Source of the DNA: Candidatus Woesearchaeota archaeon
GTDB lineage: Archaea > Nanobdellota > Nanobdellia > Woesearchaeales > GW2011-AR4
Reading direction: 5' to 3'
Assembly: GCA_016185805.1 (NCBI GenBank)
Contig: JACPMW010000045.1
Span: 1-38,369 of the forward strand
Length of the DNA: 38,369 nucleotides
The notes under the pieces are model-generated. The model searched no databases and had not been told where the DNA came from. It was given only the letters and a program-made list of their open reading frames with translations. Position numbers and translations under genes: made by a program. The first letter of the stretch is position 1. Each line of letters starts with the position of its first letter. Of this stretch, positions 1 through 35,100 are shown piece by piece.

Positions 1-3000
1 TTCTTCACATGCCTTTTCAGCCATTCGTTCCAGTCGAAAAATATCCTCTTTGAATCCAAAGTCCCGATTTCTTCCCTTATCCGCTCTGATATCTTGTGGA
101 ACTGGTCATTGCTTTGTATTACAAAATCTGCCTCCAACAATCCCATGTTGTTTGTCTTGTTCGCAAAATCAACCAATGCTTCCTTTGTTTTTGCACGCAG
201 CAGTATGTTGTCCCATACAGCATCCCAGTTGCCTGCCCATTCTTTCACATTTCCTGCAATTGCCTTAAGGATTTCAGAATCTCCATTAATTAAATCCTCG
301 CTTGTCTCAAGCTCATCTTTTTTTGAATCATACTTCATCAAATCAACAAAACCTTTCTCCACAAGAGGGTCCTGCTCCCAATGCTTCCTGACCTCTGTTA
401 TTTGGGTCACTCTTCTCCACCTGTGCAATCCATCGGCGCTTCTTACAGGATTTGCAACGACAACAACGTCTGTTGCCTTGAAGCTTGTCCTTGGCACTCC
501 CAAGTCATTTACAACCCTGTCAAACACCCCGTAAGGAGAATCTCCGTGGATTGTGCCTGCAACCACATTTGCCAAAGCTCCAACCCTCATGGCTTCATAC
601 AATGCAAGCGCCTCCTTGCTCCTTATTTCCCCAATTATCAGGGCAGAATCCCCCATCCTTAATGTTGTCCTTATTCCCTCGTCTGCAGGCACCTCGCTTG
701 TGCCTTTTGACAAAGCAGCAGCAACTTTCATTGATTGAATGTTATATCCCAATTTTCTTAGCGAGTTTGTCGGCAATTCAAGAGTATTATGGGCAATTAT
801 ATTTTCACATACAAAACTCTCACATTCAGGAACGGAAATATCATATACAAAATCCTCAAAATTTTCGATAAGCTCTATTGATTCAATCTCGTCCCAAAAT
901 ACATCTGAATTTGCAAGAGATTTCAAATTATTTCTTAACTTACTTTCTGGCATCAATTCAACAATTTGGGTTAATTTTGTTCTTCCAACATTGTTGTTTC
1001 TGATTATGTAATCATGATATTTAAAATCATTATATTCTTTGAGAATGTTCTTTTTGGTTTCCAATCCCAGAGGTATGACATCAGAGCTATCGTGCGTGCT
1101 TTTCTTGCTGCAAAGCTTTTTTAGGACAGATGCCTTGTAATGTTGCAAAAATCCTATATTTTCATGGAATCTAATAAAATCTTTTAAGGTGCTTATACTA
1201 GCATTATAAGTCCCATCTTTTCTGAGTTTTCTGATTCTGAGATTAATTCCATAAAGAGAAAGCAGGAATTGCACGTCTTTTAACAGATTAATTGATGAAA
1301 GCGGTATGACAATCTCTTTGTCTGTTGCACATCCATCTCCTGAAAATAGCCCTTTCAAGATTTGTGCTATCTGTTCTTTTGAAAGATTAAAGACCCATTC
1401 TGGAATCCTTTTTGTATAAGCATTTCCATCCAGATTTAAGCATTCTTTCATTAAAATCTTTAATGGCTTGGAATTTATCATATAAGAAACTTTATCGGAA
1501 TGAATTTTTCTCTTTAAGTTGAATACCTTAGCCACATCATCAAATATTTCCCTGTCTTCAGCATCATTGCAGGATATTATAACACTGTTTTTATCGTAGC
1601 ATCCATCAGCTATCCATAGGCCTATGAAAGTGAGGAATTCCTCATTAAGCTCGATATTTATCGGAATTTTTGTTATGCTATTGTTATAGGAGAAATAAGC
1701 GTCATTCCCTACCTTGATTCTTTGATTTATCAAAGATAAAAGCACTTGCTGCGGTAGCAAGCCTTTTCTAAACCAATTTGTAGCAGCTTCTTTGCTATAA
1801 CCCAATTCTTTTCTTAAGTATATAATATCTTTTTTATTTTCCAAAAGCACTTTTTTGATGGAATTTCCGCAAAAGAATGTGTTTGGAATCCTAACTAACT
1901 GCTCTAGCAAATTCAACCTGTGGATGGGCTTATTGTCAATATTGACTAATCTGGAAGCAGCTATGAAACTTCCCTCTTTTAATTCATTGGCTTTGGTCTC
2001 AACTATATTTGCATCTTTATCAAGCCCGAAAAGAGAGTGGTCACCTGTTACTTTTATAGTCCTTCCAGTTCTAGTTCTTATTTTGTAAATTGGTTTTTTT
2101 ACTTTATGCCTGATGAATTTGCTTACTGCTGATAATTTTATTTTTCCTTGCTTGTCCATTGCAAATACTTTTATGTTTTCAGGGTTGCCAGTAACTTCAT
2201 GCTCCGTAAGGTTATACCACTTTCCATATTTGTTGATTAATTCATCAATCAAAGAGCCTATTGTAGTTCTTTCAATTTTGCCATTTCTTTGGATTATAAT
2301 GCTGGAATCTCCCGTTACACTATCCTCTATCGTTATCACTCTATATTTTCTCATCAATTCAACTAAAACAGCCCCAAGCAGGCTTGTTTTTCCGGCACTT
2401 CTTGTCCCTGCAATCAGCATGCTTCTTGCACCATCAATCAAAAAGCTCATGATGCCGGCTGCCATTGGGTTGATCATCTTGTTTTGTATGAACAATGGCA
2501 AAGTCCATGGCTTGTCCCTATGCCTTCTGAAAGCAAATGCCAGCCCGCTCGGGTTTAATGGGGGTGCTACAACAGCAATTCTTGAATTTGCTCCTGGAAT
2601 TGTCAATTCTGTATCAAGGATTGGATTTGCCTCATCTAATGGCCTTCCGGAAATCAGCCTCAGCTTGGATGCCCATGAATCCGCCTCCGGAGATGTCGGC
2701 ACTATGTTTGTGACGCAGTCAGCATAATCCTGATGGACAATGAACATCGGGGTTTCCCCCAATGGGGAATTTATAGTTATGTCCTGCACTCTTTCATCCT
2801 GCAAAAGCACCTCAATCAGTCCAAAGCCAACGGTGTACCTTACAAGTATTTTCGTCATCTCATCTATCTCTGCAGAGCTCAATCTTAAATTCCTGTAATT
2901 GACAAGCTCCTCTATCAAATCAGAGCCGATATTGTAGAAGACCTGCCTCATCCTTTCAGGATCGATAAATTCCTGCCTTGTTGGCTTGTGCTCCGCCATT

Positions 3001-3815
3001 ATTTTCCTGGCTGTGTCAAGGATTTCGTATTTTTCCTCGCTCAGCTTGAATTCCGGGGGTATTAAATGGTAGAGATACTGCACATTGTCCGGCAATTCAA
3101 AAATTGTCACCTCTGTATTTTTGTCAATCTCGTAGCTGTCAATTTCCTCGCCTTCAGCCGGAAAGGTTGCCATCAGTTTCGTAAACATGAAATCCGGCCT
3201 TATATCTGGAGTGAATATCCTCCTGTAAACAGAGCGCTCATTAAGCTTGTACCCTGACAGATATTGCTTTGCCGCGTCTATTAATTTTGTTTTTTCAAGC
3301 AACGCCATCAAATAGCTTAAAATTGCAATGTATTTCTTTGCACAATTTATGTAATTCTGGTCAAGCGTCCTGTCAATCCTTATTCTCTCGTCCCTTGCAG
3401 TTCTTTTCAGCTCAACATAAGCTCCTATTGGATCCCTTTTCAGCATGTCTGCTGTAAGATTTTGCAATGAGGCGTACCACTGCGCAGCCCATTTAGTGCA
3501 TTTTGGGTCAGCAAGCAGGTTTGCATACCCGATAACATCCCTCCTCTTTGTCAGCTGGGAATATAGCTTCGCAATCTCCTGCATCATCATGGTTTGGCTG
3601 TAGTCATACTCATAATTCCTTTTTTGTGTATACACTATTTTTGTTACTCCTGTAGTTTCAGCCAGAATGTCCATGGTCCTTGACATGCACACAGGGTCGT
3701 CTTCCAGCGATGGGGTGTGCTGGTATTGCTCCAAATCAATCATAAGTATAGTTTCATCACCCTCCCTCAAAATGTCATAGGAGAATGGTTTTTTAGTCTC
3801 TCCAAATAACGCCAT
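1..3815 (-). CDS. Type II/IV secretion system ATPase (VirB11/TadA/FlaI-like) with in-frame intein; 3' end runs off the window
   Basis: Manually translated from ATG 3815 (MALFGETKKPFSYD...), open to position 1. Walker A GTRSAGKT, Asp box TIED|TLEL split by the intein, Walker B IIGEIR, His box GTIHGDS. Not in the ORF track. Confidence 0.92.
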   Translation of the reverse strand, partial: MALFGETKKPFSYDILREGDETILMIDLEQYQHTPSLEDDPVCMSRTMDILAETTGVTKIVYTQKRNYEYDYSQTMMMQEIAKLYSQLTKRRDVIGYANLLADPKCTKWAAQWYASLQNLTADMLKRDPIGAYVELKRTARDERIRIDRTLDQNYINCAKKYIAILSYLMALLEKTKLIDAAKQYLSGYKLNERSVYRRIFTPDIRPDFMFTKLMATFPAEGEEIDSYEIDKNTEVTIFELPDNVQYLYHLIPPEFKLSEEKYEILDTARKIMAEHKPTRQEFIDPERMRQVFYNIGSDLIEELVNYRNLRLSSAEIDEMTKILVRYTVGFGLIEVLLQDERVQDITINSPLGETPMFIVHQDYADCVTNIVPTSPEADSWASKLRLISGRPLDEANPILDTELTIPGANSRIAVVAPPLNPSGLAFAFRRHRDKPWTLPLFIQNKMINPMAAGIMSFLIDGARSMLIAGTRSAGKTSLLGAVLVELMRKYRVITIEDSVTGDSSIIIQRNGKIERTTIGSLIDELINKYGKWYNLTEHEVTGNPENIKVFAMDKQGKIKLSAVSKFIRHKVKKPIYKIRTRTGRTIKVTGDHSLFGLDKDANIVETKANELKEGSFIAASRLVNIDNKPIHRLNLLEQLVRIPNTFFCGNSIKKVLLENKKDIIYLRKELGYSKEAATNWFRKGLLPQQVLLSLINQRIKVGNDAYFSYNNSITKIPINIELNEEFLTFIGLWIADGCYDKNSVIISCNDAEDREIFDDVAKVFNLKRKIHSDKVSYMINSKPLKILMKECLNLDGNAYTKRIPEWVFNLSKEQIAQILKGLFSGDGCATDKEIVIPLSSINLLKDVQFLLSLYGINLRIRKLRKDGTYNASISTLKDFIRFHENIGFLQHYKASVLKKLCSKKSTHDSSDVIPLGLETKKNILKEYNDFKYHDYIIRNNNVGRTKLTQIVELMPESKLRNNLKSLANSDVFWDEIESIELIENFEDFVYDISVPECESFVCENIIAHNTLELPTNSLRKLGYNIQSMKVAAALSKGTSEVPADEGIRTTLRMGDSALIIGEIRSKEALALYEAMRVGALANVVAGTIHGDSPYGVFDRVVNDLGVPRTSFKATDVVVVANPVRSADGLHRWRRVTQITEVRKHWEQDPLVEKGFVDLMKYDSKKDELETSEDLINGDSEILKAIAGNVKEWAGNWDAVWDNILLRAKTKEALVDFANKTNNMGLLEADFVIQSNDQFHKISERIREEIGTLDSKRIFFDWNEWLKRHVK
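786..2321 (-). mobile_element. Intein with LAGLIDADG homing endonuclease (512 aa)
   Basis: Starts SVTGDSSII after TIED. Block B VTGDHSLF, endonuclease motifs FIGLWIADGC and ILKGLFSGDGC, block F/G VYDISVPECESFVCENIIAHN followed by +1 Thr (TLEL). Confidence 0.93.
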
Positions 3816-23273: not shown

Positions 23274-23606
23274 TCAAAAAACTTTAATAAATTCAGATTT
23301 TACTTTCTCAAAGGTCGCGTTGCTTAAAGTTCCTATTCTCATGACTATTAATCTTTTTTCAACCGTGAATACTTTGTCAATTTTTATGCAACTTGGTTTA
23401 ATGAGTTTGCCGCTGCTCAAGTCCTCTTCATTTATAAGAATAGAGTAAGTCTCATCCCTTATAACAGTAGTGAGGGGCAGCATTATGCTATCGTTTGATT
23501 TTTTATTGAGAAAATCATTTGAAACTACAAGCGCAGGCCTTACTTTTGTCCTTTCCAAATCAGTGAATGGGTAAGGCAATAGAACTATGTCTTTTTGTTT
23601 AACCAT
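23274..23606 (-). CDS. PemK/MazF family toxin
   Basis: DIVLLPYPFTD...KVRPALVVSN. Confidence 0.9.
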   Translation of the reverse strand: MVKQKDIVLLPYPFTDLERTKVRPALVVSNDFLNKKSNDSIMLPLTTVIRDETYSILINEEDLSSGKLIKPSCIKIDKVFTVEKRLIVMRIGTLSNATFEKVKSEFIKVF

Positions 23607-23616
23607 TGTAAAACTT

Positions 23617-23892
23617 CTAGATTTTGGTTTTACTAATTTTCAAATAGTTATTCCAGATATCGTCTTGCTTGTTGCCCCAGACGTCCTTAAGCGCCTGTTC
23701 GCTAAATCTCATCAAATCCTTGAAATGGTCTTTCATTTTTGCTGATACCCTGTGTGATTTTTCTATCAATATTTTTCCATTGGATTCAAAAATAACTAAT
23801 TCGTCCCCTTTTTTGATGCCTGCCTGCTCCCTAATGGTTTGCGGAATGGCTATTTGCCCTTTGTCAGAAACTTTTATGGTTTTAACAATCAT
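23617..23892 (-). CDS. AbrB/MazE family antitoxin
   Basis: KVSDKGQIAIPQTIREQAGIKKGD; directly upstream of the toxin. Confidence 0.9.
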   Translation of the reverse strand: MIVKTIKVSDKGQIAIPQTIREQAGIKKGDELVIFESNGKILIEKSHRVSAKMKDHFKDLMRFSEQALKDVWGNKQDDIWNNYLKISKTKI

Positions 23893-24057: not shown

Positions 24058-25386
24058 ATGTCAAAAAAGAGCTTGTTGTTTTCATTAGTTTTGATTTCTT
24101 TTATAATTTCTGGCTGCACAGCAAAAGTAGAACAGCAGGAAGCTACCCAAATTCCTGAAATCAAGGAAAGTATAGAACAGGAGCAGAATGATTATGATAC
24201 AGCACAACAATCCGACATTTTGGAAGAAAGAGATATTGAGCATGGAAAGGAATCTTCCCAACAATCTGGCTGGTCAGTCCTGCATACAAAACTAGATGGG
24301 TGTCAAGAAAAAGATGTTGTATTCACAAGCCTTCCCTTGGATATTGAGGATATAACGGCGGTTGAGCCTCAAGGAGAGCTTACAAATTCAGGGCATGTAA
24401 CTCCGGGCGACCATGCTGGATTCCAGTATGATGCAAAAACAAAAATTAACGTTTATGCAATGGCAGACGGGTACATCAAGAGAGTGGAAAGGAACAGGCC
24501 CTTTGGCGAGCTAAAATCAAAGAATTATCATGTATACATAGAATTTTCCTGCTCGATGTTCGCAAGCTATGTGCATGTGACAGAGATTGCGCCTGAAATT
24601 TTGGAAGCATCTCCTGAATTCAAGAGACTGGATTCTCTGGAAGAGGTTCCTGACAATGAGAGAAGCATCTGGCCAAACATACCCATAAAAGCAGGACAAA
24701 TTATTGGAAAGGCAAATGAATGGGGCTTGCTTGGGATGCTGATTGCAGACACCAAAGTCACGCTTCCCGGATTTGCCAATCCTGAAAAATATAAAGGGGA
24801 AGACTGGAAAATGCACGCTGTTCCTCCATTCGATTATTTCACGCCAGAGCTTAAATCGCAGCTTATGGAAAAGAATCCAAGGAAAAAAGAGCCAAAAGGG
24901 GGCAAGATAGATTTTGATGTTCCCGGAAAACTGTCTGGCAATTGGTTCCTGGAAGGCACAGACTATGCGGGTTCAAAGGAAAAAATCCCGATATATTGCG
25001 GAAACCAGTTATGTCCTTACTGGAGCGGGCATCTTGCATTTGTGTATGATTTTGTCGATCCTGACCAAGCCAGAGTTTCATTTGGAGACTATTCCGGATG
25101 GTATCCTCAGGGCCCGTATGGCATGAAAGGAAATGCAGACTTTGCAAAAATTAGTGCAGAAGACGGATTAGTAAATCTTGAGCTGGTGTCAATAGATGAC
25201 ATCGGAAATGAGTGCGGATTTGTAACACAGGGAAAGCCGCTTTGCACAAGGAACAGCAATAATGTTGTTGGCATCATACTTGTCCAGATGCTTGATAACA
25301 ATAAAATAAAAGTTGAGCTGTTTCCAGGCAAGACAGCATCGGAAGTTGCAGGCTTTACAGGCAAAGCAAAAGTTTATGAGAGGTAA
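24058..25386 (+). CDS. Lipoprotein with a possible degenerate M23/LytM-like domain
   Basis: Lipobox IISGC; VYAMADGYI, YVHV and IKAGQIIG follow M23 spacing. Confidence 0.6.
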   Translation: MSKKSLLFSLVLISFIISGCTAKVEQQEATQIPEIKESIEQEQNDYDTAQQSDILEERDIEHGKESSQQSGWSVLHTKLDGCQEKDVVFTSLPLDIEDITAVEPQGELTNSGHVTPGDHAGFQYDAKTKINVYAMADGYIKRVERNRPFGELKSKNYHVYIEFSCSMFASYVHVTEIAPEILEASPEFKRLDSLEEVPDNERSIWPNIPIKAGQIIGKANEWGLLGMLIADTKVTLPGFANPEKYKGEDWKMHAVPPFDYFTPELKSQLMEKNPRKKEPKGGKIDFDVPGKLSGNWFLEGTDYAGSKEKIPIYCGNQLCPYWSGHLAFVYDFVDPDQARVSFGDYSGWYPQGPYGMKGNADFAKISAEDGLVNLELVSIDDIGNECGFVTQGKPLCTRNSNNVVGIILVQMLDNNKIKVELFPGKTASEVAGFTGKAKVYER

Positions 25387-25433
25387 AATGCCAATAAAAT
25401 TCCTGGATTTTGTTTTATTTTCATAAATTGTCC

Positions 25434-25508
25434 CGTATAACCGCTTTTTTGCGGTTCGCTTCGCTCAGCCTAAGTTTCAGCAAAACTTCGCAAAAAAATA
25501 GTTATATG
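25434..25508 (+). repeat. attC-like hairpin, left (CGTATAAC...GTTATATG)
   Basis: TAAC/GTTA core boxes, inner stem TTTTTTGCG/CGCAAAAAA, internal GTTCGCTTCGCTCAGCC shared with the right site. Confidence 0.7.
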
Positions 25509-25728
25509 TTCGTTCGTGCCGCTTCTTCATTATGGTTTTACCTTGCAGGTCGTGGAATAACTTTCGCATAATCTGGAAGATTATACGCAGGTCTTAAACT
25601 AGTGTACGCATAATTCGAGAAAACCCGCCTATTCCTGATAATATTAACCGTAAATCCTTTAGTTGTCGCCTTTCTAATGCAGTAAAATAACAGTAAACAT
25701 TTTAAACTACTAAAGACCTCCAGTCTTT

Positions 25729-26892
25729 ATGGCAAATAATGAGGAAAACTGGGTTATGCCCGAAGAAGACGATGATGGGGGAGAAGATACGCCTTTAGAA
25801 TATAATATAACTTCTTCTCCAAATGATTTTAATACAAAAACTGTATTTGATTTTATGGAAAAGGGGATTGTTAAGATTCCAGGATTTCAAAGAAATTATG
25901 TTTGGGACATAAAAAGAGCTTCTAAGTTAATAGAATCCATAATTATGGGGTTGCCAATTCCTCAGATATTTTTGTATGAAAAAGATAAGAATGACTTTCT
26001 AGTAATAGATGGTCAACAGAGACTTATGACAATCTACTATTTTTTTAAAAAAAGATTCCCTAGGCAAGATAAAAGAATTGAATTGAGAAAAGTCTTTGAT
26101 ACCGAAGGTAAAATTCCAGATAGAATCCTTGAAAGTAACAGTTATTTTACAGATTTTGAGTTAAAGCTGACAGAACCTGTCCCTGAGGTTGATAACAGGC
26201 TAGATGGTTTAAATTATTCAACATTAGAAGATAACGATAGGAATACATTTGACTTAAGAACTATAAGAATTGTGATAATAAAACAAAGTCATCCTCCAGA
26301 TGACCATTCTGCCATGTATGAGATATTTTATAGATTAAACACTGGCGGGATGAACTTAAATCCACAAGAAATAAGGGCTAGTTTATACCATTCAGATTTT
26401 TATGATATGCTTTCTAAATTAAACTTGAATAGTAAATGGAGAAGATTAACAAAACCAGAACCGGATTTGCATATGAAAGATATTGAGATTATAGTTAGGG
26501 GTTTTGGCATGTTAATGGAAAATCAAAATTATAAGCCTTCAATGGTTAAATTTCTTAATACATTTTCCCAAAAAAGTAAAACCTTCACTACACAAAAAAT
26601 AGACTACTTAAAAGAATTATTTGAAGGATTTTTAGATGCCTGTGATAATTTGCCTAACAAAATTTTTTTAACTCAGTCAGGTCAATTTAATGTTTCTATG
26701 TTTGAGGCAGTTTTTGTTGCCGCTACAACTGAACCTTATCAAAATGAGGACACGAATGTTAAAATAATTGATGCTGACAAACTGAATGCGCTAAAGGAAG
26801 ATCAGGAGTTTAGTGATGCAATTCAAAGACAAACTACTAGTAAGAAAAATGTTTTAATAAGAATAAGCAGAGCTCGAGAAATTTTATTGTAA
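25729..26892 (+). CDS. DUF262 (ParB/Srx-like, GmrS-type) domain protein
   Basis: PGFQRNYVW, LIESIIMGLPIP, VIDGQQRL, IFYRLNTGG. Confidence 0.9.
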   Translation: MANNEENWVMPEEDDDGGEDTPLEYNITSSPNDFNTKTVFDFMEKGIVKIPGFQRNYVWDIKRASKLIESIIMGLPIPQIFLYEKDKNDFLVIDGQQRLMTIYYFFKKRFPRQDKRIELRKVFDTEGKIPDRILESNSYFTDFELKLTEPVPEVDNRLDGLNYSTLEDNDRNTFDLRTIRIVIIKQSHPPDDHSAMYEIFYRLNTGGMNLNPQEIRASLYHSDFYDMLSKLNLNSKWRRLTKPEPDLHMKDIEIIVRGFGMLMENQNYKPSMVKFLNTFSQKSKTFTTQKIDYLKELFEGFLDACDNLPNKIFLTQSGQFNVSMFEAVFVAATTEPYQNEDTNVKIIDADKLNALKEDQEFSDAIQRQTTSKKNVLIRISRAREILL

Positions 26893-26904
26893 TGATTCAT
26901 TTTC

Positions 26905-27423
26905 ATGGTAGAAAACATTATAGATGAATTCTATAAACGGCACTTAGAATTATTAAATTATTTGGAAGAAAATAAAGAGATTTCGCTTAGAAGTGAAGCT
27001 GATGATAATTTTAAAAAAGTTTTAGTCATAGCCATTGCTAGTTTTTTTGAACAGGAAATTATAGACACCCTAAATAGGCTTATAGAAACCAAAATTAATG
27101 ATGGTAGATTAATATTTTTCAGTAAATTTAAAGGCATCAGGCGCCAATATTATACTTATTTTGACTTTGATACCGACAATAATGCCAATCGATTTTTTAA
27201 AATTTTTGGAGATGAATTTAAAAAACAGGCAGAAGAAGATGTAAAATTAAATCAAGATTTGGGGCAAGGAGTTAAGTCTTTCTTGGAGATAGGATTGACA
27301 AGGGACAGGTTAATTCATCAAAATTTTGCTACTTTCTATTTAGAGAAAACTTCAATAGAAATTTATAACTTATATAAATCAGCAATGGTTTTCATAGACT
27401 ACTTAAAAAATAAATTATGTTAA
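26905..27423 (+). CDS. HEPN domain protein (DUF262-associated type)
   Basis: IASFFE and RDRLIH (RxxxxH); 12 nt downstream of DUF262. Confidence 0.8.
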   Translation: MVENIIDEFYKRHLELLNYLEENKEISLRSEADDNFKKVLVIAIASFFEQEIIDTLNRLIETKINDGRLIFFSKFKGIRRQYYTYFDFDTDNNANRFFKIFGDEFKKQAEEDVKLNQDLGQGVKSFLEIGLTRDRLIHQNFATFYLEKTSIEIYNLYKSAMVFIDYLKNKLC

Positions 27424-27429
27424 TCATTA

Positions 27430-27831
27430 TTAATTTGATAAATAAAATTTCATTATTTTGTTGATGCATTTTTCTAGATTTTTCTTAATATCGTGCTCCC
27501 AGACTCTGATTACTTTCCATTCCTCTTTTTTCAGCATTCTATTATATTTCTTTGCCCTATCAATATTTTTCTGAATTTTTTCCTGCCAATACTTTCTAGG
27601 CGGCACTTTTCCCAATTTTTTCCAATTGTAACCATGCCAAAAGTCGCCATCAAGGAAAACTGCAATTTTATGTTTTTTGCTACCGAAGTCTGGATTTCCT
27701 AGTATTCCTTTTGGCTGATATCTAAGGTAAGTCCCTTTTAGCCTAGCTTTTAAAAACAGCTCTGGGCTTGTATTATTTGAGCGTATCTTTGACATTACTT
27801 CGCTTCGCTTTTTTTTGGTAAAAACATCCAT
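27430..27831 (-). CDS. vsr: Very short patch repair endonuclease
   Basis: DVFTKKKRSEVMSKIRS, GNPDF, FLDGDFWHG, RVWEH. Confidence 0.93.
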   Translation of the reverse strand: MDVFTKKKRSEVMSKIRSNNTSPELFLKARLKGTYLRYQPKGILGNPDFGSKKHKIAVFLDGDFWHGYNWKKLGKVPPRKYWQEKIQKNIDRAKKYNRMLKKEEWKVIRVWEHDIKKNLEKCINKIMKFYLSN

Positions 27832-27922
27832 AATCCCTATTAGCTGGGATTCCTTTTAAATAATTTACTGGTCATAACTACAATGGAAAATAATATAAGT
27901 AGCAACATGTTACCTATTCATT

Positions 27923-28900
27923 ATGGAAAAGATAAAAAAGAAAATTTCGATTTCAGATATTAGAGAAGGGAATGTAGTGGAGGATATATTTGTTGTTAAA
28001 ATAAAGAAAGATTTCAAGCCTTATAGTAAGGGGTACAGTTTCACTCTAGTTCTTACGGATTCCAGTGGGGGAAGCTTGGACCTTAAGTTTTGGGGAGACT
28101 CAGATGAAAACAAAGTAAAGGCACTTTTTGATTCTATACCTTCAGATTCTGTTTTGAAAGTTTCAGGGAAAGCTAGCTCCTATCAAAGCATAATGCAACT
28201 AGCAATTAACGATTATAATAGTATACAGTTATTAAAGCCAGGGGAGTATGATTCCTCGGATTTTATACCGACAACAAAAAAAGACATAGAGCAAATGTAT
28301 AAGAATCTTATTGAAATTATAAATACTATTTCTGATGAAAAGATAAAAATCCTACTGCTCGAAGTGGTAGAAAAAGATTTCAAAGAGGAAATCAAAATAC
28401 ATCCAGCAGCCATTCAGTACCATCATGGATGGGTTGGAGGATTGCTAGAACATATCTTAGAAGTGATTGAGATATGTGAAACTGCATTTAAGATTAATGG
28501 CTCATTGAATAGGAATCTTTTGATTGCAGGAGCTATACTCCATGACATAGGGAAAATAGAGGAATTGGAGGTTACAACTAGAATAAAGGCAACCAGGAAA
28601 GGTCAATTGATTGGACATTTGACAATGGGGGCTTTTTATGTTAATAAGAAGCTTGAGTCCTCTCAAATTGATGATTTAACCAAAGAAAAATTGATACATC
28701 TTATATTAAGTCATCATGGAAAGTTCGAATACGGGTCACCAAAAGAGCCTATGTTTCCTGAGGCAGCAGTTTTGTACTATGCCGATGAGTTAAGCTCTAA
28801 GCTTGCCGAGTTGCACAAAATTGTAGAAGACAATAAAGATGTTACAGAAGATGATTTTACTTTTGTTAGAAGGAAAGGCAATAATATTTTCCTAAGGTAA
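27923..28900 (+). CDS. YhaM/Cbf1-like 3'-5' exoribonuclease (OB fold + HD domain)
   Basis: LTDSSG, HPAAIQYHHGWVGGLLEH, LHDIGK, ILSHHGKFEYGSP, YADEL. Confidence 0.88.
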   Translation: MEKIKKKISISDIREGNVVEDIFVVKIKKDFKPYSKGYSFTLVLTDSSGGSLDLKFWGDSDENKVKALFDSIPSDSVLKVSGKASSYQSIMQLAINDYNSIQLLKPGEYDSSDFIPTTKKDIEQMYKNLIEIINTISDEKIKILLLEVVEKDFKEEIKIHPAAIQYHHGWVGGLLEHILEVIEICETAFKINGSLNRNLLIAGAILHDIGKIEELEVTTRIKATRKGQLIGHLTMGAFYVNKKLESSQIDDLTKEKLIHLILSHHGKFEYGSPKEPMFPEAAVLYYADELSSKLAELHKIVEDNKDVTEDDFTFVRRKGNNIFLR

Positions 28901-29941
28901 AATAATTTTTTCTTCTTGTATTTTTGCCAAATTTGCCGACCACTCTTTTATCTTGCCTTGTTGTTTTAGCTCCAATAGGTCTTTCATAATTTGCATGGCC
29001 AATGCTTCAGCCAGTTTAACAGGCACGGCATTACCTATCATCTTATACCCATCTGCAACATTACTATAATAAAATACAAAATCGTCTGGAAAGGTTTGTA
29101 TCCTTGCACATTCCCTTACTGAAAGCCTCCTGTAGAGATTTTCTTTGCTCTTTATAAATTCCATCTTATCTTTTTGGACATGCCTCATTTTTGGGGCCTT
29201 TGGATGGCAAGGCGCATGCCTACCGCCTGCCTGAATTGTGAAAGAAGGCTCATCCCAGCCTCTTACCCTATTTCTTGACATATAGATAGTAGAAAATCCG
29301 CCATTCATGTATTCATGGTTGTATATTTCTAATTTTCCATTTGACTTATTTTTCTGGCTCGCGGGAATAGGCTCTGGCAAGTCACCAATTGCATCTTTTA
29401 ACATTGACTTAGCCTCTAAAGGCTTTGGAAATTCAAACTTCTTCCCAAATTTTTCATGGTAGCCTACAACAATAACCCTTTTTCTCTCCTGCGGAACCCC
29501 ATAATCATTCGCATCAAGCAATTTAAAGGAAACATTGTAGCCAATTTGCTTAAAGGCATTAACTATTTTCATAAATTCAGTGTAATGCCTGCTAGACAGT
29601 AGCCCAGCAACATTTTCAGCTAAAAAGAATAGTGGCTTTTTTTCTTTAATTAGCCTAACATAATCATAAAAAACTCTACCTCTAGGGTCATTTATTCCTC
29701 TCATTGCCCCTGCAAGGCTCCAGCTTTGGCAAGGCGGACCTCCAACAAAGCCAACAACATCAGGAACTTCATCAGCTTTTATTTTAGTGATAGATTTTTT
29801 ATTAATAGAAATTTTATGGTTTTTTTCAAATGTTTCCCAGCAGCCTTCCCAATTGTCATTGGCAAATGCTAGCTTAAATCCTGCATTTGTAAACCCTAAA
29901 TCCAATCCACCGGCTCCTGAAAAAAATGATGCTATTTTCAT
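28892..29941 (-). CDS. C5-cytosine DNA methyltransferase, HaeIII/NgoPII-like (probably GGCC)
   Basis: FSGAGG, GGPPCQSWS, ENV, QERKR, TRD STIYMSRNRVR, IGNAVP; the TRD resembles M.HaeIII as recalled. Confidence 0.93.
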   Translation of the reverse strand: MKIASFFSGAGGLDLGFTNAGFKLAFANDNWEGCWETFEKNHKISINKKSITKIKADEVPDVVGFVGGPPCQSWSLAGAMRGINDPRGRVFYDYVRLIKEKKPLFFLAENVAGLLSSRHYTEFMKIVNAFKQIGYNVSFKLLDANDYGVPQERKRVIVVGYHEKFGKKFEFPKPLEAKSMLKDAIGDLPEPIPASQKNKSNGKLEIYNHEYMNGGFSTIYMSRNRVRGWDEPSFTIQAGGRHAPCHPKAPKMRHVQKDKMEFIKSKENLYRRLSVRECARIQTFPDDFVFYYSNVADGYKMIGNAVPVKLAEALAMQIMKDLLELKQQGKIKEWSANLAKIQEEKIILP

Positions 29942-30795
29942 TTTTCCTTAAATGATATTAGCTTTGCGTCAATCTGCTTAGCTGGGTTATTTGGGTTTTT
30001 AATTTTTATTTCACTTACTGAAATTTCCTTATTGCTCTCCACTTTTTGCCTATCTTCCTTTGGGAATGAGTCATATTTATCTTTTTTCATGATGGCAAAC
30101 AAGTGAAATTTTCCATCGCTTTCTACTTTGCAATGACTTTCATATACTCTCAAGGGATTCTTAATGTGCCACATACCCCTAATTCTTAATTCAGTGATGC
30201 CCAGTGGGTCTACTTTTCTGACTTTTCCTATTTCAACAGTCTCTCCCTTTTCAAGATTTAGGCTGTCAAGCACCTTGTCAACTTGCTCTTTTATTGGCGA
30301 ATGCACCTTATTATAAACATCATGGTCAGCAGCATAGCAAGTTCCTTGGATAAAGAAGAGGTAATTAACTTTTCCATTCTTTGCGTGTCCTATAACATAG
30401 AATAGCTCTTTTTCTTTCCATCCGGGCTCACAATTTCTGCATGCTTTTGTAATTCTGGCATCTGTTGACAACAGCTTATCTTTCGGAGGTGAGCTATTTA
30501 ACGCAAGCGCAGATTTTGGGCTTTCAATTTTCTTTATTTCAAAAGCATCGCTATTCTTAATAATCATGTCCGGCGGGTTATTTTGGTTGCCCAGGTAAGA
30601 GAATATTTTTGAGTATGTTTCCTCTTTTTTCTCTTGGGGCAGTTTAAATGAGTCTGCTATGGCATCCCTAACGTAATATTCAAGCTGCTCCCCAACCGCA
30701 TTAATCCTTATCAGATACTTAGAAGCATAGCTCTTTAAATCATTATTTCCAAAAGAAACAATGCTTGAAACGGCACTTAATATATTGTTTTGCAT
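29938..30795 (-). CDS. NgoPII-family type II restriction endonuclease
   Basis: FSYLGNQNNPPD, DAFEIKK, LALNSS, VDPLGITELRIRGMW; ATGA overlap with the MTase. Confidence 0.88.
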   Translation of the reverse strand: MQNNILSAVSSIVSFGNNDLKSYASKYLIRINAVGEQLEYYVRDAIADSFKLPQEKKEETYSKIFSYLGNQNNPPDMIIKNSDAFEIKKIESPKSALALNSSPPKDKLLSTDARITKACRNCEPGWKEKELFYVIGHAKNGKVNYLFFIQGTCYAADHDVYNKVHSPIKEQVDKVLDSLNLEKGETVEIGKVRKVDPLGITELRIRGMWHIKNPLRVYESHCKVESDGKFHLFAIMKKDKYDSFPKEDRQKVESNKEISVSEIKIKNPNNPAKQIDAKLISFKEK

Positions 30796-30841
30796 ATCAC
30801 ACCCTTTGTTTTCCTATAATATACGGAACTGATTTATAAAG

Positions 30842-30865
30842 CTTGCCCACAAATGTCCAGTGGTC
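30842..30865 (-). promoter_or_regulatory. Pre-TATA motif copy 3 (GACCACTGGACATTTGTGGGCAAG)
   Basis: Same CACTGGACAT core and spacing, followed by CTTTATAAA and the REase gene. Confidence 0.5.
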
Positions 30866-31091
30866 AAAAATCAATTAAAATACCATAATGAAGAGTAAAT
30901 TACGGCGACAACTGGGATTTATGGCGGGTTTTCAACTAGTTTAAGAAACTTTTTTGCAAAAAGATGTTATTCCACTAAAACCATATGAGAAGCTAAATGC
31001 CGAATTTTCCATCAAAGGAAATTCGGGCGGCACGAACAACTAAATCCTCACGAAATCGGGCATCAAAGCCCTCATTCGTTGCGGCTTAATT

Positions 31092-31173
31092 CATATAACA
31101 CATTTTAGGCAGTTCGTTCGCTCAGCCATCAAAGGCATCGCTCACTATGTTCGCCTAAAATGTACGTTATACG
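31092..31173 (+). repeat. attC-like hairpin, right (CATATAAC...GTTATACG)
   Basis: 11-bp inner stem ACATTTTAGGC/GCCTAAAATGT, a 2-nt bulge before GTTA, internal GTTCGTTCGCTCAGCC. Confidence 0.7.
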
Positions 31174-31228
31174 AACAATTTAAACCCAAAACCTTTCCAG
31201 CCAAGATGCTGTCTAATCTGCTGGACTT

Positions 31229-31596: not shown

Positions 31597-32814
31597 TTAT
31601 AAATCCAGCTCCAGAACCCTGCCAACTTCTTCCCTTACTCTTCCCTCAAAATCAGGAACTGTTTCCCCTTCCTGCTTTTCCGTGCTCAAGATTTTCATCA
31701 AATTTTTTATTAGCTCTTCCTCTTTCTCTGTGCTCAAATTGTCCAATTTTATCTGGCCCAGGTGCTCTTTGACTAAAAATGATTCTATGTCATCCACATT
31801 CTTTGCGTCTGTCTTTATCTCCTCAAACTCCTGTGATGCTAGTGCGTGCAAGCTTTTCATTACAAAATAAGCCGACTTGCTGTAAATTTCATTGAAAATT
31901 TCCTTGAAATCGATATCAGATGGCTTGCCTGACTCGAGCGTTCCAAAAAGCCTTATCAAGACAACTGTGTTGTTGAATTCTTTGTTTTTTATCTCATTGA
32001 AAATCTCATTTTTAATCTCGTCAGGGCTTTTATGGCTGCAATCCTTGTTTATCTTGTAGATATTATAAATCTGTACAGGCTCCCATCTTGCATTTCCATC
32101 TTCAACAATGTAGAAGCCGCCCCTCTCCAGTTTCTCCAATTCCGCAAAGCTGTTCGGAAATAATGGCCCCGGATAAACAATTCTCCCATAGCCTTCAATC
32201 TGCTTGTCATCAACAATATGGACGTGGCCGCCGGCGTAATAGTCAAAGCCCTTCGGCAGCAGAGACAATGGCTGCGAGATTATGTTTTCCATCTCCTTTG
32301 GCTTCAGTTCATCAATCCCGGAGTGAAACATAAAAATCTTGTATCCCTCTTCTCCCTCCAGATTTTCCAGAATAAGCTTTTCGTAATAGGATTTTTCCAA
32401 TGAGCCTCTTTTCCCAAGAATTCCTGTTATCTTTGCACCTGTTTTTTTGTCAACAGTAAAATTTAATTTTAATTTGCCGTCTTCAGCGCTTCCCTTGAAC
32501 ACATTTACAAACAATCCGGCTTCCTCCAGGACATCAAGAATTGTCTTTCCGCTCGGGCTGTAGTCATGCGAGCCCGGCACTATATAAACTGGAATTTCCA
32601 AATCCTTTAATTGCTTGAATTTTGTGACAACTGCTTTCAAATTATCAAGCCTTGGAAAAGAGGTGTTGAACAAATCGCCTGCAATCAGGATAAAATCCAC
32701 TTTTTCTTTTATGCACTTGTCAATTGCCTTGCAAAATGCCAGAGTGCTTGTATCCTTCAGTTTCGGGTCTCTCCACGAGCCTATATGGCAGTCCGCTAAA
32801 TGGGCGAATTTCAT
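31597..32814 (-). CDS. mre11: DNA double-strand break repair nuclease Mre11/SbcD
   Basis: AHLADCHIG, IAGDLF, PGSHD, FHSG, GGHVH, YPG; near herA. Confidence 0.9.
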   Translation of the reverse strand: MKFAHLADCHIGSWRDPKLKDTSTLAFCKAIDKCIKEKVDFILIAGDLFNTSFPRLDNLKAVVTKFKQLKDLEIPVYIVPGSHDYSPSGKTILDVLEEAGLFVNVFKGSAEDGKLKLNFTVDKKTGAKITGILGKRGSLEKSYYEKLILENLEGEEGYKIFMFHSGIDELKPKEMENIISQPLSLLPKGFDYYAGGHVHIVDDKQIEGYGRIVYPGPLFPNSFAELEKLERGGFYIVEDGNARWEPVQIYNIYKINKDCSHKSPDEIKNEIFNEIKNKEFNNTVVLIRLFGTLESGKPSDIDFKEIFNEIYSKSAYFVMKSLHALASQEFEEIKTDAKNVDDIESFLVKEHLGQIKLDNLSTEKEEELIKNLMKILSTEKQEGETVPDFEGRVREEVGRVLELDL

Positions 32815-32844
32815 GGATTAAAGGTAATATATGGCAATTTTTAA

Positions 32845-33090
32845 AGGTATTCAATACCACTGGACCAATACCTTGGAGAAAAAATAGATACCACTTATGA
32901 ATACATATATGGTGCTGGAATATCAATAATTGTTATTGGTATTATTTTTCTTTTAATAACATTTTTTGTTAATTTTAATATTAAAAATTTAATTTTTTCA
33001 AGTTTTATAATATTTTTAGGCATGGCTGTTCTTGTAATTTTGGAAATGCTGAAAAAAAGATTTGTAAAAAATAAGAAAGGATATAAATAG
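32845..33090 (+). pseudogene. 5'-truncated membrane protein fragment
   Basis: 82-codon AT-rich open frame (...YIYGAGISIIVIGIIFLLITFF...FIIFLGMAVLVILEMLKKR...) with no start codon at its 5' end. Confidence 0.35.
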
Positions 33091-33102
33091 AATTAAAAAT
33101 TA

Positions 33103-33271
33103 GGAACTGCATATCTCCTTTGCATCACCTCCGGTTGTTTTATTCAAAAGAATACCTTACTTCGTTCGGGTATTCGCTAGGTGATTAAAGATTTCCAAAA
33201 GCTTGTTTGTTGTCCCTTTGAATTCCGTTTTTGGAATCGAGGATTTGCCTTGGGTTTTGGAGTGCAGTTCC
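33103..33271. ncRNA. Candidate structured RNA closed by a 9-bp stem
   Basis: GGAACTGCA/TGCAGTTCC enclose ATCACCT/AGGTGAT, GAATACC/GGTATTC, TCCAAAA/TTTTGGA and ATTCC/GGAAT. Confidence 0.4.
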
Positions 33272-33277
33272 CGATGA

Positions 33278-33496
33278 TCATGCTTGTGATCTTGCCTCAT
33301 CAATTTGAGGCTCCATAAACTCTTCTCTAAAGTATTCGGCTTCCTTGAATTTCTTCAGCCTTGGAAGGGCTTTCATATGCCTGTTGAGAGTCTCTTGCGA
33401 CTCTGTATCATCTTTCTGTGGGATATGAACTATTTTTTGTAAAGCCCTCTTCTTTTTCAGATAAAAATCTTTCAAGCCTTCCATTTTTACCCCCAA
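33278..33496 (-). CDS. Small hypothetical protein
   Basis: 72-aa charged ORF with upstream TTTATATA. Confidence 0.5.
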   Translation of the reverse strand: MGVKMEGLKDFYLKKKRALQKIVHIPQKDDTESQETLNRHMKALPRLKKFKEAEYFREEFMEPQIDEARSQA

Positions 33497-33558
33497 GATA
33501 TATAATATTGTTAAGTATATATAAATTCACTATTAAATGTATATAGCAGTATATAGAA

Positions 33559-35100
33559 TTATTTCAATTCGCTGAATTCCATGGCAAAACCTTCTTTTTT
33601 TTCCAGAGTTTGCTGTACAACATCCTCAAAATATGGAATGCCTATTGGTGTTACAAACTTTGCAAAATTGCTTGTTATAAGCGCTTCTCCTATGTCAAGG
33701 GATGCTATTGTCCTGTCATCATCGCTTAAGTCTTGGGAAGCGCTTTCAATTATTGCTTGTCTTTCGGGCTTCATCTCTATGCCAAGTATGATTTTGGTGT
33801 TCATGTTTGCAAGTATCTCGCGCGGAATGAGTGAAGGCAGCTGCGTGATGGCACAAAGGCCAATTTTGAATTTCCTTCCTTCCCTTGCTATGGTTGAGAA
33901 TATATTCTGCCCCGCTTCAAGCACCTCCTTTCCCAGAACTCTTGGGGCTTCTTCCAGGACAATGGATATTACTGGCTTGCCTTGCAATGCTCCATCCATT
34001 TTATAATTTTTATATTTGTTGAATACCTCATTTGCAATAAGGCTTCCAACAAGCAATTCGACTGCCCCGCTGAAGCTTGAGGTGTCAATTATGACAATTC
34101 TTCCCTCTTCAAGATGCCTGCATATGTCGCTTATTGTTGCAAATCCTGAATTGAGCTGGAAAATCCCGTTGCAAAATAGTTGGTTGTCAGCAAACTCCAA
34201 ATCAAGCAGGTACAGCAATCTCCTTTTAACAACAGCCATCGTATCATCTTTAAACACCTTGCCTATTCTTAATTCTTTTTCAAGTATTATGGCTTCTATC
34301 CATTTGCTGCCGAACTCTTTGTGGTAAATGTTTATGCATTGCCTCTGTGCGTCGCTAAAATCCACAACACCCTCAAAATGAATAGGCTTTATGATTTCAA
34401 GATGCACCCTCAAGGTATTGGTTCCGATAGGGGCATTTTTAGCTGTGTAGTACAAAACATTTTCCTTGACTGGGTGCTCCTTCAGCCCAATCTTATTCCT
34501 TCCATAATACTCGTCATGGGGGTCAAGCACCAGAATTCCAAACCCCCTGCCAATTGAATTCCAGAGCAGATTTGAAACAAGCACGCTTTTTCCCCTTCCG
34601 GTTGTGCCTGCAATGAGGATATGGTGCGAGAAAACTTTCTCGCCGTCAAGATAAATGGGAACATCAAGCAGTTTTGAGCCGCTTCTCAGTTTGCCGATGG
34701 CTATCGGATTTCTTGGCTTGGCCAAAAAAGACAGATCTTCCTCGATTATTTCCCTTACTTCAGAAAAAAAATTTGGCAAAGATTTGCTGACAAAAGCATT
34801 ATTGTCCTTGATTGTTACAAGGCTTTTCATCATAGCCAGCATGTAATTCCGCAGATTTGCGTCAAAAAGCTCGAATTCAGTGTTTTCCTCCATCTTCATG
34901 CCTGAAATCAGCTCAAGATTCTGCTGCGATATCTGGCTTCCATAGATCAAGTCATAAACCTGCATAAGGATCTTGCGGTCGTTTAGGTTTGCAACCAGCA
35001 GCTCTCCAATCTCTATGTCCCCTCCAGCCTTCTGCCTTGCAATAACTTTTCCGAATTCCCCAGAAATAATTTGGCCTTTAATCGGCATATGGATAACCAC
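33559..35100 (-). CDS. herA: HerA-family helicase/ATPase
   Basis: N-terminal HAS barrel, [35 protein letters not shown]. Confidence 0.88.

Follow-up and report, generated by a model that had tools for sequence, protein, structure and literature searches.

Conserved, block-wise complementary ends of an integron-like cassette family in Woesearchaeota and their possible pairing as a large branched recombination hairpin

The window analysed here is the whole of a 38,369-nucleotide stretch from a Candidatus Woesearchaeota archaeon (contig JACPMW010000045.1 of assembly GCA_016185805.1, positions 1 to 38,369 of the forward strand), and it holds a cassette of ~5.67 kb in which six genes on both strands lie between two attC-like hairpins. 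Next to the hairpins, on the cassette side, stand two inverted arms, at 25512-25670 and 30904-31037, which are built from the same seven short blocks and are unrelated in the spacers between them. We are highly confident that these arms are conserved subterminal ends, differentiated into left and right, of an integron-like, non-autonomous cassette family of Woesearchaeota. The wider reading, in which such cassette ends would also pair arm to arm as a giant branched recombination hairpin, is to judge from the sequence comparison the best single explanation of the arms, and we hold it with as much doubt as belief. In what follows, L end and R end denote the left and right end of a cassette, G0xx denotes a genome (G000 being the source assembly) and L0xx a collected locus.

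The seven blocks, B1 to B7 (Table 1), are identical between the arms at 71/71 positions, and their spacers differ in length as well as in sequence. When the left arm was aligned locally, with gaps, to the reverse-complemented right arm, the score was 145.5, compared with 75.2 +- 8.2 and a maximum of 103 for arms shuffled in the same alignment (200 mononucleotide shuffles). Because the spacers are unequal, a gapless repeat search is blind to this relation; neither such a search nor MAFFT recovered it, and gap-tolerant local alignment was required. Seven colinear complementary blocks had been claimed in a first-pass annotation of this DNA, and all of them are exact, in their places and far above chance. 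The self-folding segments private to one arm which it had also described are likewise present (ACCTTGCAGGT at 25540-25550, ATAATCTGGAAGATTAT at 25569-25585 and CTTTTTTGCAAAAAG at 30949-30963), while its size of ~520 nt for the joined structure was too large, the stretch 30904-31166 plus 25502-25670 being 432 nt. Beyond the two arms, B7 has no copy in the 939-kb assembly, and B1 has one. As far as can be read from the letters, the complement of the shared blocks is absent from their own arm, and ~70 nt of conserved blocks thus stay unpaired within an arm; the sole within-arm candidate, a complementarity between B2 and B5, is lost in type-2 arms.

The arms belong to a family that recurs in other genomes of the genus. 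Homologues of the left arm were found at E <= 1e-8 in 14/36 same-genus genomes and, at E < 1e-3, in 0/24 genomes of other families of the order, and public records with the end motif belong to Candidatus Woesearchaeota or Nanoarchaeota. By a strict B1..B2 pattern we collected 13 copies in 7/43 genus genomes, eight of them L-type, with 8 nt between B1 and B2, and five R-type, with 40-41 nt that hold the hairpin CCGAATTTCC-TTTG(T)AT-GGAAATTCGG; each of the same-contig pairs found in this way (4/4) joins an L copy with an inverted R copy. With a degenerate pattern for the L end we found 16 loci in species genomes and 41 in metagenome contigs, with 0 matches in viral contigs. An inverted R end lies 630-5546 nt downstream of 12/58 L ends, several of these being duplicates, and an R end lies directly upstream of 2/58; most of the remaining L ends are on contigs too short for a judgement. 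Full-length homologues of the window's L arm are present in G013:C8 (83% identity) and G036:C1, and truncated copies of the element occur in G010 and G013.

Regarding the build of the ends, both open from outside to inside with GTTAYATG, after which B1 comes next in the L end and an R-specific connector in the R end. Homology among 42 distinct L arms starts at this terminal 8-mer, and an outer module (8-mer, B1, B2 and often B3) is common to these 42 and to 15 distinct R arms. Several alternative inner modules sit behind the one outer module. The inner module of the window, B4-B7, is present in 15/43 genus genomes, the L side having a long form, in which a small hairpin separates B5 from B6, and the R side a short form, and the same-contig pairs are without exception one long and one short copy, inverted (6/6). 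Two further arrangements were observed among the ends. A ~110-nt hairpin-rich module (TCGCTACATTACTTTCGCTTAATTC ... CTCAGCCTAACTTTTTTC) stands in the L arm of many cassettes (e.g. L005/L008/L012) and in the R arm of two, among them L017 (R arm at G001:C22:13950-14178), there in the opposite relative orientation, the copies being direct and not inverted. The source genome has a third related end at G000:C53:18370-18720, in which a hairpin with an ACCCC-TTTGAT-GGGGT loop is followed by GTTATATG and the start of an R-type connector, and then by an inverted CGCTTAATCC...GGATTAAGCG module.

What lies between the ends varies from cassette to cassette and is mostly defence genes: an NgoPII restriction-modification system either with Vsr and GmrSD/HEPN or with three genes of no assigned function, a PLD-helicase with an AAA protein and an N6/N4 methylase, a 609-aa hydrolase, and a PBECR2 nuclease. 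No recombinase or transposase was found in the 7 cargo sets examined. A near-empty cassette was seen at L044:6330-7430 (= L080), with its ends 630 nt apart, a single open reading frame (ORF) of ~70 aa and complete boundary hairpins. The chromosomal flanks differ too, and hold housekeeping genes such as those for thermosome, RadA, FttA and Mre11. Homologous L and R arms thus bound differing cargo at differing chromosomal sites, in agreement with the first-pass view of a selected structure that is no decayed terminal inverted repeat.

The hairpins next to the arms invite comparison with attC, which is an imperfect hairpin of 60-140 nt with R''/R' boxes RYYYAAC / GTTRRRY, L''/L' stems of free sequence, and extrahelical bases. 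Here the boxes of the two hairpins (25434-25508 and 31092-31172) read (C)RTATAAC / GTTATAY, one position each off the attC consensus. The outer box of the left hairpin, CGTATAAC (25434-25441), pairs with GTTATA (25501-25506) and encloses an inner stem CGCTTTTTTGCG / CGCAAAAAAATA and a loop with GTTCGCTTCGCTCAGCC, a motif met again on the same strand at 31117. In the right hairpin, CATATAAC (31092-31099) pairs with GTTATAC (31166-31172), ACATTTTAGGC / GCCTAAAATGT form the inner stem, and the loop has GTTCGTTCGCTCAGCC-ATCAAA-GGC; the target flank GTTATACGAACAATTTA comes after. The hairpins are in direct orientation and the arms inverted, since both loops have GTTCG(C)TTCGCTCAGCC on the + strand. 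The left outer flank TAAATTGTCCCGTATAAC is the inverted partner of the right outer flank (31166-31182), and the flanks form a palindrome. The loop core of the right hairpin recurs beside arms in G013 and G036 at 95-98% identity, and longer forms of this hairpin are present in L086, G036 and L044. By a genome-wide search, the source genome does not in general carry hairpins with TTTGAT/ATCAAA loops.

These sites follow an integron-like logic. The terminal 8-mer of the window's L end is the exact reverse complement of CATATAAC, and the L-end 8-mer matches the cassette's own R'' box in this exact way in 9/9 cassettes where both are visible, five with GTTATATG and four with GTTACATG. The far-side box of the right hairpin runs on into the flank as GTTAYACGAAC, and the inner stems differ among hairpins with complementarity kept. 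A solo hairpin in G030:C25 is 93% identical to the window's left hairpin and continues differently 3' of GTTA, ending in the canonical attC GTTAGGC. Moreover, contiguous junctions of R arm, connector, hairpin and L arm exist in G036:C1 and in metagenome contig L086, as neighbouring array cassettes would give. From these sequence comparisons we infer that, just as when attC recombines with attC, strands are exchanged inside the short GTTA core on the hairpin's 3' side, and that the cassette corresponds to 25503-31166, the left hairpin having belonged to the target.

As to whether the two ends can pair, a circular junction was made in silico (30895-31166 plus 25503-25680, 450 nt) and folded as DNA. 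It reaches -94.6 (+) / -97.7 (-) kcal/mol, against -41.0 +- 5.1 (+) / -42.5 +- 4.2 (-) in forty mononucleotide shuffles, and 69/71 block nucleotides pair across the arms with the private inserts as side branches. The natural junction of G036 (531 nt) shows the same architecture and folds to -100.1, against -57.65 +- 4.46 in 100 dinucleotide shuffles, none of which is as low; z is about -10 for both junctions. A branched hairpin is what the first-pass annotation had predicted for the joined ends, with a fold as single-stranded DNA against shuffled controls as its proposed check.

The two ends of one cassette also match each other. Among 12 distinct cassettes, cognate L and R arms score 94.6 and non-cognate ones 76.6 (permutation p = 0.0002); the cognate partner is top-ranked in 7/12, and the inner parts alone give p = 0.0014. 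When the 8-mer, B1 and B2 of L are compared with those of R, 301 cells are identical and 2 different, against 32.5 +- 9.0 different cells for shuffled partners (p about 0.0015). B1 has two variants, GTTCGTGCCGC and GTGAGTGTCGC, as has B2, with TATGGTTTT and TATTATTTT, and the same variants are used at both ends of a cassette. Because the arms of the neighbours at the L086 junction differ in type, the match belongs to the cassette, whose two ends would meet in the circle.

The spacers, although unrelated between the arms, are structured. The L arm of the window has the private hairpins ACCT-TGC-AGGT and CGCATAATC-TGGAA-GATTATACG and a TAT..ATA hairpin between B5 and B6, and the R arm has CTTTTTTGCAAAAAG and, at 31000-31026, CCGAATTTCC-TTTGAT-GGAAAATTCGG. 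The connector adds a hairpin CGAAT-GA-GGGC TTTGAT GCCC-GA-TTTCG, with tandem G.A, which is kept in the R ends of other cassettes and covaries. Covariation was measured for two private R-arm hairpins in 12 distinct R arms (19 pairs, 500 shuffles). Changes on both sides were found in 11/19 pairs, pairing cells make up 91.2% compared with 79.7 +- 1.5% in shuffles, and the covariation score of 0.425 (0.188 in shuffles) is reached by 0/500 shuffles; when the partner is slid by one to three columns, pairing falls to 20-61%. The TTTGAT loops are invariant. Judged by eye, the L-arm hairpins compensate as well (ACCT/AGGT, CCTT/AAGG, CCTC/GAGG, CTCT/AGAG, and CGCATAATC/GATTATACG versus CGCTTAATTC/GAATTAAACG). 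The covariation means that the private inserts, at the least, are under selection as stem-loops; a site in duplex DNA needs no such fold. The TTTGAT strand of the R arm has 7 G.T versus 4 A.C cells, three of the four being misaligned or deleted positions, and under RNA parameters the outside-to-inside strand of the R arm folds better than the opposite strand in 13/13 distinct copies, by 11.9 kcal/mol on average.

The mechanism that we propose would run as follows. A tyrosine recombinase supplied in trans would exchange strands in the GTTA core, 3' within a hairpin, and in an excised circle or an array the R arm and the L arm would then end up flanking the hairpin site. Were the DNA single-stranded, the shared blocks would pair and the private inserts would protrude as small hairpins, whereby the recombination hairpin would be extended to a branched structure of ~430-530 nt that may stabilise or mark the site. 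Through the conserved outer blocks, R and L arms would be free to zip together in any combination within one type, and the private hairpins with their invariant TTTGAT loops may serve as protein handles. The full proposal of an integron-like system of Woesearchaeota, which would have a multi-branched single-stranded site of ~430-530 nt made from both cassette ends in the circle or from the facing ends of array neighbours, TTTGAT handles, and an Xer-family enzyme and not IntI, is put forward tentatively and with more doubt than confidence.

Which enzyme would act on these ends can be narrowed by the genes present. Our best guess from the sequences is an enzyme of the Xer family, supplied in trans. 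The tyrosine recombinases tested from G000, G001 and G036 included no integron integrase: 8/8 match archaeal XerA best, and they stay below the TIGR02249 cut-off (best 247 versus 265), matching this model in two stretches. There is no tyrosine recombinase in the window, and a single one was found in the source assembly, 86% complete: a XerA paralogue at G000:C17:1469-2308, which shares 90% identity with one in G001 and 38% with canonical XerA. It adjoins an array of small cassettes (G000:C17:1469-10100) in whose cores, as in the window hairpins, CGTATAAC / GTTATACG boxes go with a GGC-ATCAAA-GCC loop. A candidate dif site, TTCGTATAAAA-TCAGTA-TTTTATACGGC, was observed at G000:C35:4296-4323 in an 11-6-11 inverted-repeat layout; allowing up to 3 mismatches it is found in 8/43 genus genomes, mostly once per genome, its identification being tentative, and it has the 9-nt TTCGTATAA in common with the outer box of the hairpins. 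Two other kinds of enzyme were considered and rejected. IS110/IS1111 elements carry a DEDD recombinase beside a structured non-coding end; no cargo has a DEDD recombinase, and PF01548 is present in 2/5 element-bearing genomes, far from the elements. IS200/IS605 elements use the Y1 transposase TnpA and have subterminal hairpins in direct orientation; the arms here are inverted, and PF01797 is found in 4/5 of these genomes and not in G001, which holds a complete element.

A number of observations weigh against the pairing of the arms. The first-pass annotation had proposed to judge it by covariation between the arms, and of this the matched end variants within cassettes are there, but compensatory change within the blocks is almost absent; the blocks are conserved across cassettes and barely vary, so strict compensatory change cannot be scored in them. 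Two or three discrete, matched end types also fit shared descent, gene conversion or a cognate protein equally well, and the cassettes are not independent samples in the matching counts. The idea of a branched recombination hairpin from joined ends thus keeps its fold in silico and the place of the arms beside attC-like hairpins, but the matching is equally that expected of descent or a protein. One of the 13 elements is mismatched, G013:C8 having a type-1 L end and a type-2 R end with the R'' box deleted. The eight single differences that could be read between L and R blocks are 5 bottom-strand G.T, 2 top-strand G.T and 1 transversion, which is not significant. Because any long inverted repeat folds well in silico, the folds speak for feasibility only. 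Tests of strand disagree, as the L arms have both kinds of cell and no strand preference, and DNA parameters prefer no strand in either arm. When integrated and solitary the arms are 5.2 kb apart and therefore no help to excision; they could matter only for the circle or between array neighbours. Hairpins of the same kind occur armless (G030:C25, and also the window's left hairpin, which stands behind an ORF without an arm), and arms are hence not needed to define a site. The XerA paralogue is present in 3/9 genus genomes with an L end and, at an identity of at least 85%, in 3 that lack an L end; paralogue and L ends do not go together, and the paralogue was rejected as the cognate recombinase. 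Finally, no circle-junction or empty-site contig was seen in the assembled contigs of four groundwater metagenome runs.

Among the alternatives, the one that survives best takes the arms as accessory sites in duplex DNA, bound by the recombinase or a host architectural protein and set symmetrically about the crossover site, like the arms of phage attP or the ends of Tn7 and Mu, where the unequal spacing would mark left and right and no pairing of arms would take place. It accounts for block sequences that are conserved across cassettes with unrelated cargo, for the consistent differentiation of L and R by short versus long spacers (the inner-module pairs included, 6/6 long plus short), and for discrete end types matched within a cassette, as a cognate protein predicts. 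However, the seven blocks are all different and give no repeated binding motif, the private spacers are covarying self-complementary hairpins that duplex binding does not require, and the cassette carries no recombinase or accessory gene. We regard this explanation as possible and rather unlikely.

It is less probable still that each arm is a structured non-coding RNA transcribed inward, with GTTATATG as its TATA box, the two arms being diverged inverted copies that may for example regulate the cargo. A pair of inverted RNAs had been the alternative named in the first-pass annotation, and we retain it at low probability. Conserved blocks joined to variable, covarying hairpins are typical of RNA families, and the excess of G.T over A.C cells and the RNA-parameter preference of the R arm point the same way. 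Against this, Rfam 15 gave 0 matches at gathering in the window, and for both arms chance-level matches only (E above 2, with E <= 10 searched); nothing within the arm pairs with the ~70 nt of conserved blocks; the L arms lack the strand preference; the arms begin exactly at the recombination core, always as one L type and one R type; and in G030:C6 and G030:C17 the cargo gene beside the arm points toward it.

The same two loci speak against a reading of the arms as ordinary regulatory DNA, that is, as inward promoter/operator modules duplicated before the two outermost operons, to which we also give a low probability. Both window arms do stand upstream of inward genes (GmrSD at 25729 and R.NgoPII at 30795), TATA-like boxes come after each arm, and the NgoPII/GmrSD cargo lineage is accompanied by the inner module B4-B7. 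Yet the outer module (8-mer, B1, B2) is common to cassettes of unrelated cargo, covarying hairpins are unexpected of operators, and likely promoters lie between arm and start codon, which would place the arms outside them. Last, the idea that the arms are the terminal inverted repeats of a DDE-type transposon in decay, or an inverted repeat that arose by chance or duplication and has no present function, is disfavoured to the point of being very improbable: inverted ends do bracket cargo and some copies are truncated (G010, G013), but all 71 block positions are identical next to unrelated spacers, the same blocks are kept in other genomes, there is no target-site duplication, the flanks being inverted and not direct, and no cargo examined has a transposase.

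Compared with known systems, integron cassettes and clusters of attC sites lacking integron integrases (CALINs) are the nearest working likeness. An integron cassette is one, usually promoterless, ORF plus attC in a unidirectional array, and the integron integrase, a tyrosine recombinase with an insertion specific to IntI, is usually encoded beside that array. Like cassettes and CALINs, the units described here are promiscuous in cargo, rich in defence and toxin genes and without a recombinase of their own; their hairpins are imperfect, with a conserved AAC...GTT outer box and variable complementary inner stems; exchange apparently takes place in GTT(A) on the 3' side of the hairpin, so that the first bases of the unit pair with its own distal box in the circle; and head-to-tail array junctions occur. 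In contrast to integrons, no IntI was found, all eight tyrosine recombinases tested being Xer-type, and in contrast to an integron cassette the window unit has six genes in both orientations with likely promoters of their own and is solitary among housekeeping genes, so the likeness lacks both IntI and the cassette form, with the attC boxes fitting in part. Conserved, differentiated L and R arms of 130-200 nt flank the hairpin site here, unlike at attC, and we know of no comparable arms for attC sites. The present analysis adds the block-wise arm architecture, the statistics of L/R matching, the fold of a natural junction and the covariation of the private hairpins. A literature search found no description of such arms; the supplementary tables of PMC9668308, which were outside that search, might list the hairpins as attC. 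For Archaea, Nanoarchaeota among them, integron cassettes and CALINs are reported by Ghaly et al. 2022 (PMC9668308), who are also reported to have assayed recombination of archaeal attC sites in a laboratory host.

Three other kinds of element offer partial likenesses. The units resemble integrative mobile elements exploiting Xer (IMEX) in being mobile elements without a recombinase of their own, on whose hairpin a host Xer-family enzyme would act, and in the TTCGTATAA identity to the candidate dif. Such elements, of the CTX-phi type, integrate via host XerCD on a hairpin of two inverted single-stranded stretches. They differ from the present case, which is no phage and has no known single-stranded stage and a far larger, branched hairpin, with dif and the role of Xer inferred. 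The pdif modules of Acinetobacter plasmids consist of accessory genes between inversely oriented Xer sites, each a 28-bp duplex in 11-6-11 layout, and have in common with our cassettes the recombinase-free, varied cargo, the inverted boundary elements and a suspected dependence on Xer; here, however, there is no 11-6-11 site at either end, and the boundaries are structured arms of 130-200 nt with hairpins. The ends of Tn7 and Mu repeat one transposase-binding motif and make target duplications. As in those elements, the L and R ends carry common motifs in inverted order and at different spacing, but the seven blocks are different, the spacers are covarying hairpins, and neither a target duplication nor a linked transposase is present.

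The features of the window cassette are collected in Table 1. None of its six genes is a recombinase by Pfam. At 30833-30865, upstream of R.NgoPII, we observed a promoter-like CCACTGGACA(T) followed 12-14 nt on by a TTTATAAA-type box; the same CCACTGGACA/TTTATAAA motif stands upstream of the Xer-paralogue gene (G000:C17:2340-2395) and of genes beside other cassettes, outside the L ends in L011, L016 and L017, and may be a shared regulatory site for cassette genes.

Table 1. Features of the cassette and of its complementary blocks in the window
Feature	Position	Strand	Description
B1	left 25512 / right 31027	+ / reverse complement	GTTCGTGCCGC, exact match
B2	left 25531 / right 30976	+ / reverse complement	TATGGTTTTA, exact match
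B3	left 25552 / right 30966	+ / reverse complement	GTGGAATAAC, exact match
B4	left 25592 / right 30935	+ / reverse complement	TCTTAAACTAG(T), exact match
B5	left 25619 / right 30923	+ / reverse complement	GAAAACCCGCC, exact match
B6	left 25651 / right 30915	+ / reverse complement	TAAATCC, exact match
B7	left 25660 / right 30904	+ / reverse complement	AGTTGTCGCC, exact match
Left boundary hairpin	25424..25500	+	attC-like, presumed target site; read from sequence
L-end terminal 8-mer	25501..25508	+	GTTATATG; includes GTTA, presumed crossover core
Left (L-type) arm	25509..25670	+	B1-B7 plus private hairpins
GmrSD_N (DUF262) protein	25729-26892	+	Pfam
RiboL-PSP HEPN protein	26905-27423	+	Pfam
Vsr-type very-short-patch mismatch endonuclease	27430..27831	-	Pfam
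OB-fold/HD-domain protein	27923..28900	+	Pfam
C5 cytosine methyltransferase	28892-29941	-	Pfam
NgoPII-type restriction endonuclease	29938-30795	-	Pfam
Right (R-type) arm	30904..31037	-	B7-B1 as reverse complement
R-specific connector	31038..31091	-	~55 nt, no L-arm counterpart
Right boundary hairpin, cassette's own attC-like site	31092..31182	+	read from sequence

Standing alone, the window cassette occupies a variable region bordered by GatB/MazEF on one side and an Mre11-like gene on the other. A MazF/PemK toxin gene with a small ORF upstream (23274-23892, -) and a 442-aa ORF with no Pfam match (24058-25386, +) separate it from GatB; related genomes lack the MazF/PemK and 442-aa genes here, and the stretch from GatB to Mre11 is therefore a variable slot. 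On the other side the cassette is adjoined by genes for an Mre11-like metallophosphoesterase and a HerA-type ATPase (31597-35100, -), and since the Mre11-like gene is kept in 34/42 other genus genomes, it is host DNA and no cargo. An empty site of this insertion was not found, related genomes holding other content between the Mre11-like gene and GatB/MazF. Elsewhere in the window we noted a T2SSE secretion/pilus-type ATPase gene split by an intein with a LAGLIDADG homing endonuclease domain (3-3815, -) and a translin gene; together with the thermosome, RadA and FttA genes beside related loci and the public records carrying the end motif, these mark the host as a DPANN archaeon. In the assembled contigs of the four groundwater metagenome runs, summed contig depth over the L arm is ~4x the cargo depth in the first run, and that over the R arm plus hairpin is ~4 to 60x the cargo depth across the four; the contigs break at the arms, as expected for a repeat common to many elements of the community. 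One joint in one run, 27060 -> 31174, had low support and was not trusted.

The exchange of defence genes in DPANN archaea, whose genomes are about 1 Mb and have few mobile-element enzymes, is poorly known, and the family described here is a concrete, sequence-defined vehicle for it, a cassette that moves restriction-modification, nuclease and toxin genes into many chromosomal sites. Its conserved end motifs allow metagenomes to be mined for further cassettes and for their largely unannotated cargo. If the arms do pair, the range of size and architecture known for hairpin recombination sites would widen several-fold, and the whole scenario, if true, would point to an Xer-type enzyme acting on folded DNA in archaea and would bear on the origin of IntI from Xer-like ancestors.

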